The position numbers were made by a program, and so were the translations under genes. Below the pieces are notes generated by a model. That model was not told the origin of the DNA. It searched no databases and worked only from the letters and a program-made list of their open reading frames with translations. 64,000 bases of DNA. Source: an uncultured Thermoleophilia bacterium. Lineage in GTDB: Bacteria; Actinomycetota; Thermoleophilia; Gaiellales; Gaiellaceae. Below, piece after piece: positions 1,762 through 44,118 of this stretch. Positions within the stretch are counted from its first letter, which is position 1. Each line of letters starts with the position of its first letter. The DNA lies in the NCBI GenBank assembly GCA_963786185.1, contig CAWAYE010000004.1, positions 44,105 to 108,104 of the forward strand, in the 5' to 3' direction.

Positions 1762-2898
1762 CTACAGGCCGAGCTTCAAGACCTCGCTCGAGAAGGCGTT
1801 GTAGCTGGGCTTCTTCGCGCCGGTGCGCTTCTCGACGCCGCTCGCCCAGGTTGCGCCCGTGCTGTCGCGGAAGATGAACCAGATGAACATCTGGACGTAC
1901 GGGTCCTTGTGCGCGAGCTGGAGCGCCTTCCGCAGGTCGGCCGCCTGCTTCGCATAGGTGATGCCGCCGAACGTGTCCTCCGGCTTCGTCTGCTCGCCGT
2001 ACTCGGTGATCCAGATCGGCACGCGGCGGTGGAACCACTTCCGCAGGTCGGCGCCGAACCTGGACATCGTCGACAGGGCGACGTTCGGGTACGCGACGCG
2101 CTGGCCGGGGCCGAGCGCGTAGACGGTCGGATACGGGTGCGTCGCCCACGCCGCGAAGCTCAGGTGCGGGTTCGCCTTGGCGACCAGCTGCGCGAAGGTC
2201 GCCGGTGCGACGGTGTCGTAGCCGACCTTTCCGGTCGGATGGTTCCGACCGCGGTTCGACGTCTCGCCGGCGGCGACCTGCGCGCTCGAGTTGCCCGACT
2301 TGATCCCCTTGTAGCCGGCGAGGAAGAGCTTGGCGTACGTGGCGCCGCTCACGATCTTCTTGCCGCGGTACTGGGGTGCGAGGAAGCGGCCGAGGTTCGG
2401 CTCGTTCCAGATCGACCAGCGCGTGACGACTCCGCGCTCGGCGTTCGTTCCGTCGTAGCGCGCCGCGAGCATGTGCGCGAACTGGGTGAGCGTTCGCAGG
2501 TTCGTGGGCGGGTAGTTCTGGGTCCGGCCGCCGTTCGCCCACTTCGGTGTGCCGGTAATCGTCACGAGGATCTGCATCCCGTGGTCGGTTGCCCCCGCGA
2601 CGAACTTGTCGAGGTCGCTCAGGTTGTAGGCGGGATCGTCGCCGTCGAGCGGGCTCGCCGGCTTCGTCGGTGCGATCTGCGCCCAGTTCGCGAGCGTGTG
2701 CACGATCGTCGCGCCGGCCGCCTGGGCGGAGTCGAGGTTCTGGGTTGCGTCCGGAGACCAGCGGAAGCTGGGGTCGTCGTAGAAGCCGACCTGCATCTGC
2801 GCCTTCGTGCGCGCGGCGGTCGTGCCGGGCAGCGCCGCGACGAGCAGGGCCGCCAGGGCGAGGAGGATCAGGTTTCTCTGAGAGGTGATCGAAGACAT
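1762..2898 (-). CDS. Secreted clan GH-A (GH5-like) glycoside hydrolase
   Basis: 378-aa ORF with an N-terminal signal peptide (LILLALAALLVAALPGTTAA). It has WNEPN (acid/base Glu) and ITEYG (nucleophile Glu) motifs. Confidence 0.8.
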   Translation of the reverse strand: MSSITSQRNLILLALAALLVAALPGTTAARTKAQMQVGFYDDPSFRWSPDATQNLDSAQAAGATIVHTLANWAQIAPTKPASPLDGDDPAYNLSDLDKFVAGATDHGMQILVTITGTPKWANGGRTQNYPPTNLRTLTQFAHMLAARYDGTNAERGVVTRWSIWNEPNLGRFLAPQYRGKKIVSGATYAKLFLAGYKGIKSGNSSAQVAAGETSNRGRNHPTGKVGYDTVAPATFAQLVAKANPHLSFAAWATHPYPTVYALGPGQRVAYPNVALSTMSRFGADLRKWFHRRVPIWITEYGEQTKPEDTFGGITYAKQAADLRKALQLAHKDPYVQMFIWFIFRDSTGATWASGVEKRTGAKKPSYNAFSSEVLKLGL

Positions 2899-2977
2899 GC
2901 GTACAGCGTTGCCCCGACCGGTCGGCTTTCAGTCGTGAAGTGATGGGGACGCCGTAAAACTCTCGTCAGGACTGCGT

Positions 2978-2999
2978 AAAAAACCCGGAATCGGGCCGG
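2978..2999 (-). terminator. Weak intrinsic terminator candidate after the membrane-protein gene
   Basis: On the minus strand a short GC hairpin (CCGGCCCGATTCCGGG) is followed by TTTTTT. A T6 run is conspicuous in this GC-rich sequence. It lies 8 nt after the stop at 3007. Confidence 0.35.
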
Positions 3000-3006
3000 A
3001 AGGCGT

Positions 3007-3606
3007 CTACGAGAACGGCTTCGTGACCATGTCGAGCACGACGATCAGGAGGACCGTCACGTCGACGCGGACGATCAGCAGGATCCGCTGGATCAACGCG
3101 ATCGTCTCGGGGTGAGCCGGCCCGTTCGTCTCGGCCGCCGCGGCGATCCGCTTCGCGAGCGGCGACAACACGGCGATGCCGGTGACGAAGGTGAGGGCAT
3201 AGCCGATCAGCCCGAGCACCACCCAGAACCTGCCCCACCCGAAGTTCGTGTTGACCATCATCGCGATTCCCATCAGGAACACGATCAGGCCGGACGGTGC
3301 GAACAGCCGCTCGCCGACCAACGCCGCCTGCTTGGCGACGTGCGCCACCTCGGCGGGGTCGCCGCTTCGCTCTGCGACCAGGCCGAGGATCGTCAGCAGC
3401 AGCCCGCCGCCGACCCAGAGCACGGCGAAGGTGACGTGCACGGCCTTGAAGAGGGCGAACCAGTCGTTCGGCAGGAGCGTCGACGAGAACGCGAAGACGA
3501 CGGCGATCACCGCGACTGCGCCGAGCAGGCCGGCCGTGATCAGCTGTGAGTTCGCCGAGGCGCCGGTGCTCTGCTGCGTCTCTTCGAGTGCGGGTGCGTC
3601 TTCCAC
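3007..3606 (-). CDS. Integral membrane protein (about 5 TM helices; DUF2269-like is a guess)
   Basis: 199-aa ORF with several long hydrophobic segments. It is the last gene of the ECF sigma operon, 10 nt downstream of the peroxiredoxin stop. Confidence 0.7.
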   Translation of the reverse strand: MEDAPALEETQQSTGASANSQLITAGLLGAVAVIAVVFAFSSTLLPNDWFALFKAVHVTFAVLWVGGGLLLTILGLVAERSGDPAEVAHVAKQAALVGERLFAPSGLIVFLMGIAMMVNTNFGWGRFWVVLGLIGYALTFVTGIAVLSPLAKRIAAAAETNGPAHPETIALIQRILLIVRVDVTVLLIVVLDMVTKPFS

Positions 3607-3616
3607 GGGGGGAGAT

Positions 3617-4096
3617 CTACTCAGGTTTTTCGTTCGAGTGCAAGTCCCGGCACGCCCCGAGCAGCTCGTCGACGTCCGGCAGCTCGCTGTTCTCGAAGCT
3701 CCAGGCGGCGCGAACGATGCCGTCCGAATCGACCAGGAAGGTGCAGCGCCTGGCGACGTTTCGGAAGCCGCGGAACTCCTGGCCGATCCCGAACGCGCGG
3801 ACAGCGTCGCCGTTGAAGTCCGAGAGCAGCCCGAAGTTCAGGTCGAGCGCCTGGGTCCACGCGATATGCGTCCACGGCGAGTCGCGTGAGATGCCGACCG
3901 GCTGGACGCCGAGCTCGTCGAACTCGTCTCTCCTGTCACGCAGGAGCTCGAGCTCGTTCGTTCAGGTCGACGACCAGTCGAAGAGATAGAAGAAGAGCAG
4001 CTTCGGGCCGTCCTCGACGAGCTCCGCCATGGTGACGGGCTCGTTCGGGCCGAGAAAGACCGTCGCCTCGGGAATCGGGTCGCCGACCGTGAGCAC
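3617..4096 (-). CDS. Peroxiredoxin (AhpC/TSA/Bcp thioredoxin-fold family) with in-frame TGA at codon 45, predicted selenocysteine
   Basis: GTG 4094-4096 reads MLTVGDPIPEATVFLGPNEPVTMAELVEDGPKLLFFYLFDWSST. TGA follows at 3962-3964, then [114 protein letters not shown] and TAG at 3617-3619. The TGA aligns with the peroxidatic Cys of D-F-T-x-x-C-x-x-E. The conserved Arg (RRCTFLVD) is present and GC3 is high on both sides. The gene is missing from the ORF track because the part after the TGA has no ATG/GTG/TTG. Confidence 0.75.
3919..3956 (-). promoter_or_regulatory. Bacterial SECIS-like hairpin downstream of the UGA
   Basis: mRNA positions +9 to +46 from the U of UGA form an 8-bp lower stem (CGAGCUCG with CGAGUUCG, one G-U pair) and an AG/AGA internal loop. 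Above that is a 6-bp upper stem (CUCCUG/CAGGAG) with apical loop CGUGA. The loop starts 21 nt after UGA and has G at its second position. Confidence 0.6.
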
Positions 4097-4105
4097 GTGT
4101 CGACC

Positions 4106-5224
4106 CTATCGCGGGCAGCACCAGCGGCCGTCGAGCTCCAGCTGCGGCCCGAGTCGGTCTCCGCGCGGGAACTGCTGCTCGATGTTCGAGACCGCGCGCA
4201 CGTGGGAGCCGCGGAGGAAGAGCCATTGGTTCGCCGTCGGCCAGTCGACGAGCAGCCAGCTTCCGTCCGGCGCCCACGCGAAGTCGCCGAAGGTGCCCGG
4301 CCCGGCGAAGAGCACGTGCGGCGCCCTCGGCCGGTCGGCGTGCACCAGCGAGACCTGGCTCCGTCCCTGCTCCCGGAGCGACAGCGCCAGGTCGTGGGTC
4401 CGCGGGCGGAAGGCTGCATCGACGATGCGCTCGGCCGGCGCCGCGACGGTGCGTTTCACGCTGCCGTCGCCGCGCAGCAGGACGACGCTGTGGCCCGAGA
4501 CGACGGCCAGCAGCCGGCCGTCCGACGACCAGCTCAGCGACGACGGGGTGATCGTGATCGGCGCCCGCCAGACGACCTTCCTCGTGTCGGCGTTGCGGAG
4601 CACGATCGCGCCGCCGGCGACGTACGCGACGGTGTGGAGGCGGGACGGGTCCCACGCCGGCGGCACCTCACCGGCGAAGCGGTCGAGCAGGCGGTCGTCG
4701 GTCCCGTCGCCGGCGACCACGCGCAGGCCGCCTCGCGTCATGTACGCGATCCGCGTGTCGGTGAGCGTTCCTTCCCAGCGGGGCCAGTACGCGCCGGGCC
4801 GGGGCAGCGACCAGCGGACGCCGTGCCGCACGTCCAGCGTCAGCAGGTCGGAGCTCGTCGTCGCGACCACGTAGAGCCCGTGCGGCGACCACATCGCGTC
4901 CTCGTAGTCGCCGAGCCGGCGCCGCAGGCCGTCGGCGCCGACCACCCACACCCCGCCGTCCTCGGCCGACACGACGAGCAGGCGGCCCGGCGCGGGAAGG
5001 GCGGCGAGCCGCGGCGAGGCGTGCTCGATCCCGACGGCGCGGCGCACCCGCTCGAGCACCGCGTGCCCCGGCGGCGTGATCACGGCCACCGCAACCGCCG
5101 CCGCACCGGCGACGGCCACCAGCGCCAGCAGCAGCCTGGTGCTCGGCCGCCTGCTCGCGCGGGCCGGCGAGCGCTCCTCGAACGCGCGACGCACGACCTC
5201 CCAGGCACGGTCTTCCGGCGTCAC
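4106..5224 (-). CDS. Single-pass membrane protein with extracytoplasmic TolB/WD40-like beta-propeller; putative anti-sigma or sigma-associated sensor
   Basis: 372-aa ORF whose ATG overlaps the sigma gene stop (ATGA at 5221-5224). It has a cytoplasmic segment of about 28 aa, one TM helix (LLLALVAVAGAAAVAVAVI), and a repetitive beta-strand-rich region with SPDG/SSDG-like blades. Confidence 0.7.
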   Translation of the reverse strand: MTPEDRAWEVVRRAFEERSPARASRRPSTRLLLALVAVAGAAAVAVAVITPPGHAVLERVRRAVGIEHASPRLAALPAPGRLLVVSAEDGGVWVVGADGLRRRLGDYEDAMWSPHGLYVVATTSSDLLTLDVRHGVRWSLPRPGAYWPRWEGTLTDTRIAYMTRGGLRVVAGDGTDDRLLDRFAGEVPPAWDPSRLHTVAYVAGGAIVLRNADTRKVVWRAPITITPSSLSWSSDGRLLAVVSGHSVVLLRGDGSVKRTVAAPAERIVDAAFRPRTHDLALSLREQGRSQVSLVHADRPRAPHVLFAGPGTFGDFAWAPDGSWLLVDWPTANQWLFLRGSHVRAVSNIEQQFPRGDRLGPQLELDGRWCCPR

Positions 5225-5715
5225 TCGGCGCCTCTCATCCGGTCGAGGCCGCGGCGGAGGCGCGAGTTGACGGTGCCGCGCGGCAGCCCGAGCAGCTCCG
5301 CGATCTCGCCGGGCGTGTACTCGAGCACGTAGCGGAGGACGACGACCGCCCGATGCTCCGGCGACAAGCCGGCGATCCGGGCGAGCGTGCCGTCGTCCGG
5401 CTCGGGCGCGGCCGGCGCGGCGTGGACGTCGCCGAGCTCGACCTCCGCCCGCAGCCTGCGCGAACGCGTGAAGTCGATCGCCCTGTTGACGACGATGCGG
5501 TGCAGCCAGGGGCCGAAGGGCCGCCGCCGGTCGAAGCGGTCGAGGTTGCGGATCGCAGCGAGAAAGGCCTCCTGGGCGATGTCTTCGGCGGCGGCGGCGT
5601 CGCCGGTGACGAGGTAGGCGGCCCGGTGGGCCCGCGGCCAGTGCTCGCGGAAGAGCCGTTCGAGGTCCGCGACCGAGCCCCGCTTGGCACCTCGGATCCA
5701 GGCGCGCTCAGCCAC
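5221..5715 (-). CDS. ECF-type RNA polymerase sigma-70 family factor
   Basis: 164 aa. Region 2 (AEDIAQEAFLAAIRNLDRFD...FGPWLHRIVVNRAIDF) and region 4 (YTPGEIAELLGLPRGTVNSRLRRG) are recognisable. Confidence 0.92.
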   Translation of the reverse strand: MAERAWIRGAKRGSVADLERLFREHWPRAHRAAYLVTGDAAAAEDIAQEAFLAAIRNLDRFDRRRPFGPWLHRIVVNRAIDFTRSRRLRAEVELGDVHAAPAAPEPDDGTLARIAGLSPEHRAVVVLRYVLEYTPGEIAELLGLPRGTVNSRLRRGLDRMRGAE

Positions 5716-5796: not shown

Positions 5797-6882
5797 ATGA
5801 AGAGACTGCTGCTCGTCTGCGCCGCCGCGCTCGTGCTGCCTGGCGCCGCGCGCAGCGCGGCCTGCTCGCCGCTCTCCTGCTCTCCGAGCCAGTTCGTCCT
5901 CGGGCATGGCACGCTGCTGGCGGTGCGCGGCGCGCCCGACAAGCCGCTGCGCGTGATCGACCTGCGGACGGGCCGGACGAAGTGGTGGCTGCCGGCCGGC
6001 GTCGTGACCGGGAACACCCTCGTCCATCAGGACTCTTCGCTCGTCACGTGGTTCGACGCGACCCGCGGGTCGCGCGTCGCCGACGCCGTGCTCCGGGAAC
6101 ACGGCAGCTTCACGCTCGTGGGGACGTCCCAGGACGCTGCACGCGCGGTGCTCGCGCGCACGCAGGGCCGCTCGACGACGTTCGCGATCGTTTCGCGCAG
6201 CGCGCAGCGCACCGTGAAGCTGGGAGGGAACGACTGGCAGTTCGACGCACTCGACGGACGTAACCTGTTCCTGATCAAGCAGCTCCAGAACGGGTACGAG
6301 GTGCGCCTGTACGACCTCGCCACGAACACGCTGCAGCGTCAGGCCCTCAAGGACCCGCAGGAGAGCGCGCTCATCCAGGGGATTCCCTTCGCGCGGGCCT
6401 CGTCGCCGAACGGGCGCTATCTGTTCACGCTGTACGTCGGCAGCAACGGCAACGCGATGATCCACGAGCTGGACACCGCCGCCGGGTCTGCCCACTGCAT
6501 CGACCTGCCGGGAGTCGGCGACTTCAACGCTGCGATCACGTGGGCGATCGTGCCGTCGCGCGACAATTCGACCGTCTGGGCCGTGAGCGTCGGCTACGGC
6601 CGCGTCGTCGCGATCGACGTCGCCGCGCACGCGGTTCACGAGCATACGAGCTTCGCCCGCGTCACCTGGACGTCGAACGCCGGCGTTGCCGCCATGGCCC
6701 CGGACGGGAAGCGCCTCGTCGTCACCGACGCGGAGCACACCTGGTTCGTGTCGCTCGGGACGTTCGCCGTCAGGCGAGGCCCGAACCACACGGCGATCGC
6801 GCTCGCGTTCTCCACCGACGGCCGGCGCGTCTGGGGCGTGGGTCAGCGAAGTCGCGTGTTCGCGTTACGCGTGAACCGCTGA
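5797..6882 (+). CDS. Secreted beta-propeller repeat protein (YncE/YVTN-like)
   Basis: An in-frame ATG at 5797 inside ORF 5353..6882 gives MKRLLLVCAAALVLPGAARSAAC, a signal peptide. The upstream part of the ORF is antisense to the sigma gene. The body is repetitive and beta-strand-rich. Confidence 0.65.
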   Translation: MKRLLLVCAAALVLPGAARSAACSPLSCSPSQFVLGHGTLLAVRGAPDKPLRVIDLRTGRTKWWLPAGVVTGNTLVHQDSSLVTWFDATRGSRVADAVLREHGSFTLVGTSQDAARAVLARTQGRSTTFAIVSRSAQRTVKLGGNDWQFDALDGRNLFLIKQLQNGYEVRLYDLATNTLQRQALKDPQESALIQGIPFARASSPNGRYLFTLYVGSNGNAMIHELDTAAGSAHCIDLPGVGDFNAAITWAIVPSRDNSTVWAVSVGYGRVVAIDVAAHAVHEHTSFARVTWTSNAGVAAMAPDGKRLVVTDAEHTWFVSLGTFAVRRGPNHTAIALAFSTDGRRVWGVGQRSRVFALRVNR

Positions 6883-8070
6883 CGCCTCGGTCGCGAGCGA
6901 AATCTCGCGCACGACCTCGACGATGTCGCGGTTCGCGTTCCACACGCGCAGCTGCCGGTCGGATCCGTTTCCGCGGGCGAGGATCTCGCGCACACCTTCG
7001 AGCTCGCGTTCCGAGCCGAGCTCACGGGCATGCGGCGCGACGTCCCGGAGCGTGCGGCGGACGAGCTGAGCGACCGGCACGCGGTTCCGACGGCCCGTGG
7101 CGAGATCCATCACCGGCGCCTCGAGGCCGTAGCGCGCCGCGAGCCACTTGTTCTCCGTCGTCAGCAGGCGATGCCAGCTCGGGATCTTCTTGCCGGCCTC
7201 GAACTGCTCGCAGTACATCTTCACGATCGCCTGGAAGAACGCCGTGATCGCGACCACGTCCTCGAGCCTCGTGACCGCGTCGCAGACCCGCATCTCGATC
7301 GTGCCGAGACGCGGGTGCGGCCTGATGTCCCACCAGATGTGCGTGTAGTCGGCGATGCAGCCGGTGCGCTCCAGCTGCCCGACGAGCGCGGCGTAGTCCG
7401 CGTAGTCGCGGAACCGCGGCGGCGGCCCGGAGCGCGGGAACGCGGCGAACACCATTTGCCTGCTCGACGAGAGGCCCGTCGGCTCGCCCCGCCAGAAGGG
7501 CGACGACGAGGACAGCGCCAGCATCTGCGGCAGGTGCAGCAGCAGCCCGTTCATCACCTGGATCGCCTTCTCCGGGTCGTCGACGGCGACGTGCATGTGC
7601 ATGCCGAAGATCAGCTCGCGCCGCGCGACGTACTGCAGCTGGTCGACGAGCTGCCGGTACCGGTCGCGCGCGGTGATGCGCTGGCGCTCGAACAGGCTGA
7701 ACGGATGCGTCCCCGCGGAGCCGACGCGGCATCCCTGCTCCCGGGCGATCTCGGCGACGTACGCCCGGAGCTGCGAGAGCGCCGTCGCCACGTCCGCGGC
7801 CGTGCGACAGACCGGCGTCGTCACCTCGAGCACCGACTGCATCAGCTCCGCGTTGATCCGCGCCTCGTGCTCGCTGTCGGCGACCGCGGAGAGCACGGAG
7901 TCGATGTGCTGCACGAGGTCCCAGGTCTCCGGGTCGAGCAGCATGTACTCCTCCTCGACGCCGAGCGTGAACGGGTCGCCCTTGCCGAAGGCGTGGTCGA
8001 GGACGCTCGCGCCTCGGCCGCCGGTGACGGCACCTTTGCCCGTGATCGACGACGGAAAGATCTGCTTCAC
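6865..8070 (-). CDS. Carboxylate-amine ligase, YbdK/GCS2 family
   Basis: The C-terminal 400 aa of ORF 6865..9096 contain TLGVEEEYMLLD and match GCS2 throughout. GTG at 8068-8070 overlaps the RidA stop (GTGA). The exact start is uncertain. Confidence 0.85.
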   Translation of the reverse strand: MKQIFPSSITGKGAVTGGRGASVLDHAFGKGDPFTLGVEEEYMLLDPETWDLVQHIDSVLSAVADSEHEARINAELMQSVLEVTTPVCRTAADVATALSQLRAYVAEIAREQGCRVGSAGTHPFSLFERQRITARDRYRQLVDQLQYVARRELIFGMHMHVAVDDPEKAIQVMNGLLLHLPQMLALSSSSPFWRGEPTGLSSSRQMVFAAFPRSGPPPRFRDYADYAALVGQLERTGCIADYTHIWWDIRPHPRLGTIEMRVCDAVTRLEDVVAITAFFQAIVKMYCEQFEAGKKIPSWHRLLTTENKWLAARYGLEAPVMDLATGRRNRVPVAQLVRRTLRDVAPHARELGSERELEGVREILARGNGSDRQLRVWNANRDIVEVVREISLATEASAVHA

Positions 8071-10711: not shown

Positions 10712-10723
10712 CGCTACGTCAGC

Positions 10724-11038
10724 TCAGGCAGCTTCGAGCCCGAGCGCGCGCTCGAGCGAGCCCTTCGGCATCGCGCCGACTGCGGATGCCTGCGGCTCTC
10801 CGCCCTCGAACAGCACCATGAACGGGATCGACGCGACGCCGTAGCGCAGCGCCAGGTCCTGGTGCTCGTCGATGTTGACCTTGACGACCTTCAGCTGGTG
10901 CTCGTCGGCGATCCGATCGAGCACGGGAGCGACCGCGTGGCACGGCCCGCACCACTCGGCCCAGAAGTCGACGATCACCTTGCCGTCGGACTTGAGGACC
11001 TCGGCGTCGAACGTGGCACTGGTTGCTTCGGTGGCCAT
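10724..11038 (-). CDS. trxA: Thioredoxin
   Basis: 104 aa from ATG 11038 (MATEAT..), with the WCGPC active site. Confidence 0.95.
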   Translation of the reverse strand: MATEATSATFDAEVLKSDGKVIVDFWAEWCGPCHAVAPVLDRIADEHQLKVVKVNIDEHQDLALRYGVASIPFMVLFEGGEPQASAVGAMPKGSLERALGLEAA

Positions 11039-44096: not shown

Positions 44097-44118
44097 ATAC
44101 CAATCAGACGATTGGTAT
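44097..44118. promoter_or_regulatory. Perfect 9-bp inverted repeat ATACCAATC-AGAC-GATTGGTAT (operator candidate)
   Basis: It lies 41-62 nt upstream of the phasin-like ATG and directly after the XRE gene stop. A related half-site pair, ATAGCAA-N5-TTGGTAT, occurs at 44468-44486. Confidence 0.5.

Follow-up and report, generated by a model that had tools for sequence, protein, structure and literature searches.

The DNA analyzed here is a stretch of 64,000 nucleotides (positions 44,105 to 108,104 of contig CAWAYE010000004.1, hereafter the window) from an uncultured Thermoleophilia bacterium of the Gaiellaceae (Gaiellales). Near its beginning, on the minus strand, the window carries a peroxiredoxin (Prx) gene that is interrupted by an in-frame TGA codon. 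A first-pass annotation, made from the letters alone, had proposed that this TGA encodes selenocysteine (Sec) in place of the peroxidatic Cys and that the codon is followed by a hairpin resembling a selenocysteine insertion sequence (SECIS). The coordinates and the frame given there for the gene were reproduced, while the start codon is GTG and not ATG. Read from 4096 to 3617, the frame contains 159 sense codons including the TGA and translates as VLTVGDPIPEATVFLGPNEPVTMAELVEDGPKLLFFYLFDWSST*TNELELLRD...NEKPE*, where the first asterisk is the TGA; a further stretch of the translation, upstream of the end ...NEKPE*, is ARRCTFLVDSDGIVRAAW. The sequence AGGG is present 7 nt upstream of the GTG start, where it overlaps the TAG of the preceding gene; the GTG itself is located 9 nt past this TAG. 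The features of the locus are listed in Table 1.

Table 1. Features at the Prx locus of the window (positions count from the first letter of the window).
Feature	Coordinates	Strand	Description and evidence
Predicted selenoprotein peroxiredoxin gene	3617..4096	-	GTG start 4096-4094; putative Sec codon 3964-3962; TAG stop 3619-3617; 159 residues, BCP/PrxQ-like, probably 1-Sec type
In-frame UGA, residue 45, motif S-x-x-U	3962..3964	-	Peroxidatic Cys position; ortholog and structure alignment
Putative SECIS core CUCCUG-CGUGA-CAGGAG	3930..3946	-	6-bp stem and loop CGUGA 3940-3936; stem 15 nt and loop 21 nt after UGA
Full hairpin	3919..3956	-	Core, 2x3 internal loop and 8-bp lower stem 3956-3949/3926-3919; minimum free energy fold
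ECF-type (extracytoplasmic function) sigma factor, first gene	5221..5715	-	Pfam Sigma70_r2 and r4; NCBIfam sigma70-ECF superfamily above cutoff
372-aa protein with one hydrophobic segment, short N-terminal part and beta-propeller-like C-terminal domain	4106..5224	-	Weak PD40/beta-propeller Pfam matches
DUF2269 integral membrane protein, last gene	3007..3606	-	Pfam DUF2269, E=9.6e-17; starts 10 nt after the prx stop
Terminator-like hairpin and T-run	2984..3000	-	Directly after DUF2269; consensus scan

With the U replaced by C, the protein matched the Pfam family AhpC-TSA (PF00578) with an E-value of 9e-27 and 93.9 bits (cutoff 26). The match covered residues 4-130 of 159 and positions 1-123 of the 124 in the profile and spanned the TGA, as did a second match to the Redoxin family (E=6e-13). 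The G+C content at third codon positions (GC3) was 0.94 in the 35 codons before the TGA and 0.92 in the 60 codons after it, in agreement with the high values that had been reported for both sides. In the list of open reading frames (ORFs) this frame was represented by a single 44-aa ORF (3962..4096), and no in-frame ATG, GTG or TTG after the TGA of the window gave an ORF of at least 40 aa. The 114 downstream codons could therefore not be made alone in this genome, because no start codon follows the TGA early enough.

Relatives of the gene were collected by scanning one genome per GTDB species, and the best 80 of 114 loci were used. The proteins encoded at these 80 orthologous loci were 59-87% identical to the window protein, and the 81-member set that includes the window represented ~79 different species-level genomes. 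Nearly all of them were labelled as Gaiellaceae, Gaiellales, Thermoleophilia or unclassified Actinomycetota metagenome-assembled genomes (MAGs). One Sec-type locus with Gaiellales-type gene content (L042; JAICUZ010000037.1) stems from a MAG labelled Burkholderiales, and this contig is probably mis-binned. The catalytic codon was TGA at 76 of the best 80 loci and TGC at the other 4 (L028, L055, L059 and L063), giving 77/81 and 4/81, respectively, when the window is included. A further 85 database matches were Cys forms with C at the catalytic column. Sister genomes with TGC in place of the TGA had been named in the first-pass annotation as a refutation; instead, they retain the TGA. The placement of the TGA at the peroxidatic Cys position also held in an alignment to a peroxiredoxin of solved structure, 2cx3, in which the aligned residue is Cys.

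Selection was estimated from the ratio of nonsynonymous to synonymous substitution rates (dN/dS; Nei-Gojobori, 600 ortholog pairs), which was 0.16 for the 20 codons that precede the TGA and 0.25 for codons +16 to +78 downstream of it. The low downstream value indicates that the part after the TGA is translated and under selection. A gene that is intact except for one in-frame stop could also be a fresh pseudogene, or the product of a TGC misread as TGA in sequencing or assembly, and the gene calls on the source contig treat it in this way. Yet the same TGA was present in 76 other independent assemblies and, among the metagenome contigs listed, in ~108 more. The assemblies of the TGA orthologs came from many projects and from both long- and short-read technologies, which excludes a miscall or a private pseudogene, and copies of one contaminant are excluded by the spread of identities given above. 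Since the downstream dN/dS was 0.25 and the hairpin described below strictly co-occurs with the TGA, we give a pseudogene or error practically no credence.

The 38-nt hairpin that had been drawn downstream of the UGA was found with exactly the geometry claimed for it, and its upper stem-loop proved to be conserved, while its lower stem was not well conserved. In the apical loop CGUGA, G occupies position 2 and the dinucleotide G-U positions 2-3; a conserved G has been described in the apical loop of bacterial SECIS elements (PMC1794560). The 50-nt segment beginning at the UGA folded with -20.8 kcal/mol (z = -3.67), and none of 200 shuffled sequences was as stable; a 71-nt segment reached a z of only -1.59. 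When 38 diverse Sec forms were analyzed by RNAalifold, all six upper-stem pairs were kept in 38/38 sequences, with one G-U variant. For the lower stem the same analysis returned a weak helix of 4 bp in which one pair showed a compensatory double change (covariation term -0.36 kcal/mol). Many orthologs pair this region differently, the 8 bp of the window being one local arrangement among several. What is conserved is thus the 17-nt upper stem-loop.

The conservation of this core extends to the choice of synonymous codons. In the 76 full-length Sec forms, codons +6 to +11 after the TGA read CTC CTG CGT GAC AGG AGA with a codon entropy of ~0, and among the sequences that share the residue the same codon was used in 75/75, 76/76, 76/76, 76/76, 76/76 and 61/62 cases, whereas at other positions of the Sec-form genes the codons for Leu and Arg had entropies of 1.0-1.8 bits. 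The Arg codons CGT, AGG and AGA account for 7.7%, 9.4% and 1.9% of Arg codon usage in the window, which corresponds to a joint probability of 1.4e-4. The synonymous rate dS was 0.205 in codons +1 to +15 (the SECIS zone) versus 0.58 and 0.67 in the flanks, a ~3-fold reduction. The DNA of nine Cys forms (the four genome loci and database entries P0002, P0063, P0073, P0039 and P0019) contained the hairpin core in 0/9 cases. In three of these (P0063, P0039 and P0019) the peptide is ELLRDR as in the Sec forms and yet the 6-bp/5-nt hairpin is missing, the spellings in these Cys forms being CTG CTG CGC GAC CGC, CTG TTG CGC GAC CGG and CTG CTG CGG GAC AGA. From the loss of the core in Cys forms with an identical peptide it follows that the nucleotide constraint is tied to the UGA and not to the peptide. 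The first-pass annotation had named a lack of hairpin conservation in TGA-bearing orthologs as a point that would count against it; instead, the core was fixed in the TGA forms and missing from 9/9 Cys forms. An exact-match scan of JGI metagenome contigs with the 17-mer returned at least 120 stretches. Among those listed, ~108 belong to this Prx family and have a TGA exactly 15 nt upstream of the 17-mer, including diverged subclades with the sequences ...FYLYDWTGTURTQLRLLRDRS... and ...FYLFDWSPTUTQELRLLRDRR....

Apart from the catalytic codon, TGA behaves as an ordinary stop in these genomes. It ends 29 of the 54 long, high-GC3 ORFs in the window, where it is the commonest stop, and 36 of the 77 Sec-form Prx genes themselves terminate in TGA. 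Because of this normal use, which had been noted before, the in-frame TGA has to be read as local recoding and not as a code change. A genome-wide reassignment of TGA to Trp or Gly (genetic codes 4 or 25) would account for eight full-length database proteins in which the catalytic column is Trp (7) or Gly (1); they include P0054, P0084, P0086, P0092, P0100, P0107 and two others. These calls were, however, made on short contigs, for which the choice of code is dominated by this gene. The DNA behind P0092 (L209, 152-610) contains the TGA and the SECIS core, and the stored protein is not reproduced by translation table 11. Evidently, some pipelines gave short contigs genetic code 4 or 25 on account of a single selenoprotein gene. 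No other credible TGA-interrupted gene with high GC3, with or without a SECIS-like hairpin, was found in the window or in any of the genome loci, and the candidate second selenoproteins from that scan were rejected since they read as off-frame or antisense translations. With TGA ending so many genes, including those of the Prx family, a code change is improbable in the extreme.

Public gene calls split or miss the gene, as had been anticipated for standard callers. In the record of the 209-kb source contig (ENA ERZ25039573 contig_332), this position is annotated with no more than a 44-aa stub and, antisense to it, an ORF of 83 aa. The 120 best database protein matches included no full-length Sec form and consisted of Cys forms, C-terminal fragments of 105-113 aa and the eight Trp or Gly products. 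The fragments begin with MELLRDRR in the public calls and raise the question of a split gene, in which a 44-aa N-terminal peptide would be followed by a separately initiated C-terminal protein. An ATG four codons after the TGA (+4) is present in 44 of 76 Sec forms and would provide such a start. But the other 32 orthologs have mostly Leu, Phe or Val codons at this position and the window gene has CTC, so that neither they nor the window gene have a Met codon there, and the window has no in-frame start after the TGA that would give 40 aa or more. A C-terminal fragment would also be without the catalytic residue and the initial strands of the fold, and a split gene leaves the N-terminal dN/dS of 0.16 and the TGA/Cys alternation unexplained. 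We consider it very unlikely.

The class of the protein was examined by comparison with known sequences and structures. A phmmer search against PDB sequences placed the TGA column on the peroxidatic Cys of the Aeropyrum pernix BCP 2cx3 (E=3e-19). The best PDB sequences were archaeal BCP/PrxQ proteins (2cx3, 3hjp with E=6e-18, and 2ywn), and AhpE of M. tuberculosis ranked lower (3.5e-12). An AlphaFold2 model was made of the database protein P0002, a Cys form that is 76% identical to the window protein and has the same Leu motif (see below). The model had a predicted local distance difference test score (pLDDT) of 95.2 and a predicted template modelling score (pTM) of 0.90, with C45 at the N-terminus of a helix formed by residues 43-54. 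Its best PDB match was S. solfataricus Bcp4 (3hjp), with template modelling (TM) scores of 0.90/0.90 and a root-mean-square deviation of 1.7 Å over 157 columns. Next came 5enu, the Prx6-type 6q5v and then A. pernix PrxQ (4gqf), with M. tuberculosis BcpB (5epf) lower; PDB peroxiredoxins as a group matched the model at TM 0.8-0.9.

Several active-site positions are fixed. Ser42 (-3 relative to the catalytic residue) aligns with the Ser of 2cx3 and is, like the catalytic column, invariant across 170 Sec and Cys forms. Arg117 (+72) is, along with a number of further residues, likewise invariant in these 170 forms and lies at the distance of an active-site Arg, ~70-76 residues after the peroxidatic residue; the conserved Arg that had been read after the TGA was thus recovered. 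At the position of the Pro in the PxxxT/SxxC motif the window protein has Leu38 (codon 3983-3985, minus strand), which is aligned with the Pro of 2cx3. Leu is found here in 77/77 Sec forms and in 30/85 database Cys forms, and the remaining Cys forms have Pro. Poole and Nelson call this motif an essential active-site motif (PMC4749874). Because all other features of the family and the fold are present, Leu38 was treated as a within-family variant; it would represent an atypical motif inside the peroxiredoxin family, presumably in a catalytically competent protein. No second Cys is conserved: of the window residues C118 and C149, the first is Cys in 13% and the second in 51% of the Sec forms, and none is found at +5. 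Since no second Cys is conserved, the mechanism is likely of the 1-Cys type with an external reductant.

None of the NCBIfam models reached its cutoff for the window protein. The PrxU model (NF040737) was rejected at 43.7 versus 270 bits, with residues 33-131 aligned to positions 69-171 of the 233 in the profile, and the BCP equivalog (NF006960) at 55.1 versus 140 bits, the window protein having no resolving Cys at +5. The name AhpC was rejected as well, with no model at cutoff. Judged from its best PDB sequence matches and from the fold matches of the model, the protein is assigned to no named equivalog and is BCP/PrxQ-like in its predicted class.

Sec-containing peroxiredoxins are a known kind of gene. 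Zhang et al. (2006; PMC1794560) described 12 proteins with the motif T/SxxU and inferred five Cys-to-Sec events, and the Prx selenoprotein family later comprised 91 proteins from 78 organisms and was the seventh commonest family (Peng et al., 2016; PMC5029168). With these bacterial proteins, among them PrxU of Peptoclostridium (Eubacterium) acidaminophilum, the window protein shares the AhpC/TSA fold, a predicted Sec in place of the peroxidatic Cys, the T/S-x-x-U motif, a hairpin within the coding sequence after the UGA, and widespread Cys homologs. PrxU is a Prx1/AhpC-type protein of anaerobic Clostridia with ~233 aa (model length), whereas the window protein is a BCP/PrxQ-like protein of 159 aa from Gaiellales and, unlike PrxU, has Leu at the Pro position of the motif and lacks a conserved Cys that could act as the resolving residue. 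The BCP/PrxQ proteins (Bcp4 3hjp; A. pernix 2cx3 and 4gqf; BcpB 5epf) have the same size, the sequence C/U-T-x-E from the catalytic residue onward and, in 2cx3, the Ser at -3. Identity to them is only 28-31%, and the window protein differs in its putative Sec for Cys, in Leu for Pro at -7 and in the missing Cys at +5, the usual resolving position of BCP.

AhpE of M. tuberculosis (Rv2238c; 1xxu/1xvw), a protein of ~153 aa, shares an actinobacterial origin and a 1-Cys mechanism with the window protein as predicted here, and the two align end to end. AhpE is nevertheless a weaker match than the BCP proteins in both sequence and structure, and its motif contains both the Pro and the Cys of the canonical form. 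A resolving Cys is located in helix alpha5 of some AhpE members (PMC4749874) and may be compared with the Cys near the C-terminal helix in about half of the Sec forms (C149). The putative SECIS element can be set beside that of E. coli fdhF, with which it shares the position within the coding sequence after the UGA and a short upper stem-loop as the conserved part. It differs in sequence and has no evident bulged U, and the distance from the UGA to its upper stem is 15 nt, compared with 11 nt in fdhF.

A neighbour-joining tree of 170 sequences showed Sec and Cys forms interleaved, with the Pro-Cys forms nested. The tree was based on ~150 aligned positions and carries no support values, and the direction of Sec/Cys change is not fixed by it. 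The interleaving suggests repeated Sec/Cys switches in the Gaiellales peroxiredoxin family.

Taken as a whole, the comparative signature points to a genuine Sec-encoding peroxiredoxin gene with a functional SECIS element, a reading to which we assign a probability of about 0.9; pairs of Sec and Cys at the same position among homologs are regarded as the signature of selenoproteins (PMC1794560). We infer that Sec is the residue inserted, that the hairpin is bound by the elongation factor SelB and that the enzyme depends on an external reductant. In such a mechanism, the UGA at 3964-3962 would be decoded by Sec-tRNA(Sec) delivered by SelB, which would be tethered to the mRNA by the downstream hairpin. 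The key part would be the stem-loop at 3946-3930, its loop presenting G-U, and a UGA without this hairpin would terminate translation elsewhere in the genome. In the protein, the selenolate would attack the peroxide and form a selenenic acid, which would then have to be recycled by an external thiol reductant as in 1-Cys enzymes.

A number of results weigh against this reading. Sec-decoding genes were found in no Gaiellales stretch examined (the window, 80 loci and ~119 metagenome loci). In the 64-kb window, a tRNA scan, Rfam and tblastn were all without a match to selA, selB, selD or tRNA-Sec, an absence already stated in the first-pass annotation and one that bears on the window only. When the E. 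coli SelA, SelB and SelD and the SelD, SelA and SelB of a Streptomyces plasmid were used as tblastn queries against the window, the source contig and the loci from genomes (80) and metagenomes (120), the only match was an unrelated SelB in the metagenome contig L145, and ARAGORN detected no tRNA-Sec in the Gaiellales sequences scanned (window, genome and metagenome loci). A SelA search chain led from Streptomyces SelA to database homologs (all of the class Actinomycetes), then to 150 SelA cluster representatives and finally to five contigs (L211-L215). These carried selA in 5/5, an adjacent selB in 4/5, tRNA-Sec in 3/5 and a SelD-type (AIRS-domain) gene in 2/5 cases. Their tetranucleotide correlation with Gaiellales DNA was 0.89-0.96, versus 0.991-0.994 for chunks of the window and 0.967-0.992 for single Gaiellales loci, and they were rejected by composition as Gaiellales sel loci; the compositionally closest one, L212, has relatives in the Nitriliruptoria.

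The hairpin and the protein contribute further points of this kind. Rfam searches, at the gathering threshold over the window and at E<=10 over positions 3700-4150, returned only tRNAs and noise, with no SECIS or tRNA-Sec. The upper stem showed no compensatory covariation, since it never varies among the 38 Sec forms, and because the core is invariant no covariation support is claimed for the hairpin; the lower stem, as described above, is poorly conserved. The LLRDR peptide overlaps the hairpin, and part of the conservation is therefore at the protein level, an objection that the Cys-form control answers. The canonical motif Pro is replaced by Leu, and peroxidase activity of the Sec-Prx is assumed. 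Lifestyle is a further point: Gaiella occulta, the cultured member of the Gaiellales, is aerobic. In earlier surveys, the Sec forms of Prx were associated with anaerobes (PMC1794560).

The strongest competitor is readthrough of the UGA without Sec, in which a near-cognate tRNA, aided by the hairpin, would insert a standard amino acid (Trp, Cys or Arg), or Cys would be inserted from tRNA(Sec), and the full-length product would be free of selenium. It would be compatible with the lack of Sec machinery for any Gaiellales genome in the stretches examined and of a curated SECIS model that the hairpin matches, and the downstream conservation demands readthrough but is silent on the residue inserted. 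However, the recoded site is the catalytic Cys and alternates only with Cys among orthologs, which is the Sec/Cys signature of selenoproteins (PMC1794560). Trp or Arg at the catalytic site would kill a peroxiredoxin, and the hairpin has the geometry of a bacterial SECIS: its loop begins 21 nt past the UGA and has a G within the first two bases. Moreover, related Thermoleophilia possess SelA, SelB and SelD: Solirubrobacter soli, Solirubrobacter sp. URHD0082, Patulibacter americanus and Conexibacter woesei Iso977N were all found to be SelD+/SelA+/SelB+, as was Rubrobacter xylanophilus, in a survey whose set contained no Gaiella genome (Peng et al., 2016; PMC5029168). Readthrough without Sec thus retains a small probability. 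A further variant, in which Gaiellales would lack the canonical SelA, SelB and tRNA-Sec and the 17-nt hairpin would drive a different redefinition of UGA at the catalytic residue, is given a slim chance. Sec decoding remains the preferred reading in what follows.

Some observations on sel genes and on the 17-mer outside the Prx family were made along the way. Contigs L211, L213 and L214 (ENA ERZ25039476, ERZ25039498; Logan SRR33509560) are actinobacterial MAG contigs with compact sel clusters and an adjacent tRNA-Sec, and L211 has glycine-reductase genes nearby. Some assemblies with sel clusters have ENA accession numbers near that of the window source. In the Streptomyces anthocyanicus plasmid NZ_CP109276.1 (L210), selD-selA-selB and tRNA-Sec are located on a linear plasmid of 387 kb. 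E. coli selAB carries a SECIS-like element. A comparable case might be present in L145 (JGI Ga0310342_100005409), an 8.7-kb locus of 55% GC from an unrelated genome and one of 12 non-peroxiredoxin matches to the 17-mer among those listed. Here the 17-mer (6417-6433, minus strand) lies within an intact 126-aa DUF1232 ORF, where it encodes QLLRDRR with the same codons and without an upstream TGA. The same strand then carries a HemN/HemW-like gene and a bona fide selB (2214-4079, minus strand); the number of selB genes that chance would place in the ~70 kb of non-Prx loci is roughly estimated at only ~0.005. No tRNA-Sec or Rfam match was found in the L145 locus. By analogy with the E. coli element, the L145 hairpin might also be a SelB ligand.

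The Sec-Prx gene is the third in a conserved four-gene unit on the same strand, a putative operon (Table 1). The sigma factor at its head had the SigE family as its best NCBIfam subfamily match, below cutoff. The start of the gene for the 372-aa protein overlaps the stop of the sigma gene, and 9 nt separate its stop codon from the start of prx. The 372-aa protein had no NCBIfam match and no recognisable zinc-binding anti-sigma motif; its position suggests that it is a candidate anti-sigma factor. The terminator scan returned one site, against 0.9 expected in shuffled sequence, and the terminator is supported by its position only. On the same strand upstream of prx, the sigma gene was present at 66/80 and the 372-aa gene at 68/80 of the best 80 loci, and DUF2269 was found downstream at 45/80. 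The Cys-form genes have the same neighbours, including DUF2269. Because of the conserved unit of sigma and putative anti-sigma factor, stress-regulated expression is proposed, and we infer that the Sec-Prx is probably expressed within an envelope or oxidative stress response.

Two further genes were noted in the surroundings. A GCS2 gene (glutamate-cysteine ligase family 2; approximate coordinates 6864-8069, minus strand, which did not give a clean translation) directly precedes the sigma operon, with synteny at 60/80 loci, and a gene for a 104-aa thioredoxin (~10723-11037, minus strand) is found ~7 kb from prx. Either could be related to the supply of low-molecular-weight thiols or to the recycling of the Prx.

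A literature search for selenocysteine or selenoproteins in Gaiella, Gaiellales or Thermoleophilia yielded no relevant publication; in the paper on the Gaiella occulta genome, two peroxiredoxins and one formate dehydrogenase are mentioned, but nothing on selenium. What is new here is the lineage and the Prx class, for which no report was found; Sec-Prx genes as such are known, and the principles of Sec decoding are unchanged. A conserved Prx linked to an ECF sigma factor appears to be a selenoprotein in 76 of 80 species-level genomes (the best 80 of 114 loci). A wider proposal, that the proteins form a distinct Sec-Prx class with Leu for Pro, that Sec and Cys have switched repeatedly within one order and that the gene is wired to an ECF sigma/anti-sigma pair, all taken jointly, is put forward tentatively and is the less probable outcome. 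If it were true, the family would amount to a natural experiment on what leads aerobes to retain Sec in a peroxidase.

Of the uncultured Actinobacteria in soil, Gaiellales and related Thermoleophilia belong to the commonest. For this lineage, the inventories of antioxidant genes would have to be corrected, and a selenium requirement would be implied for an abundant soil group. The gene also reveals one way in which short contigs from soil come to be assigned a false alternative code. The fixed 17-nt core offers a compact candidate SECIS for a Gaiellales SelB. The predominance of the Sec form in an order with an aerobic cultured member speaks mildly against the trend that links Sec forms of Prx to anaerobes (PMC1794560), and the interleaved Leu-Sec, Leu-Cys and Pro-Cys forms may serve as matched sets for testing the benefit of Sec in a peroxidase.

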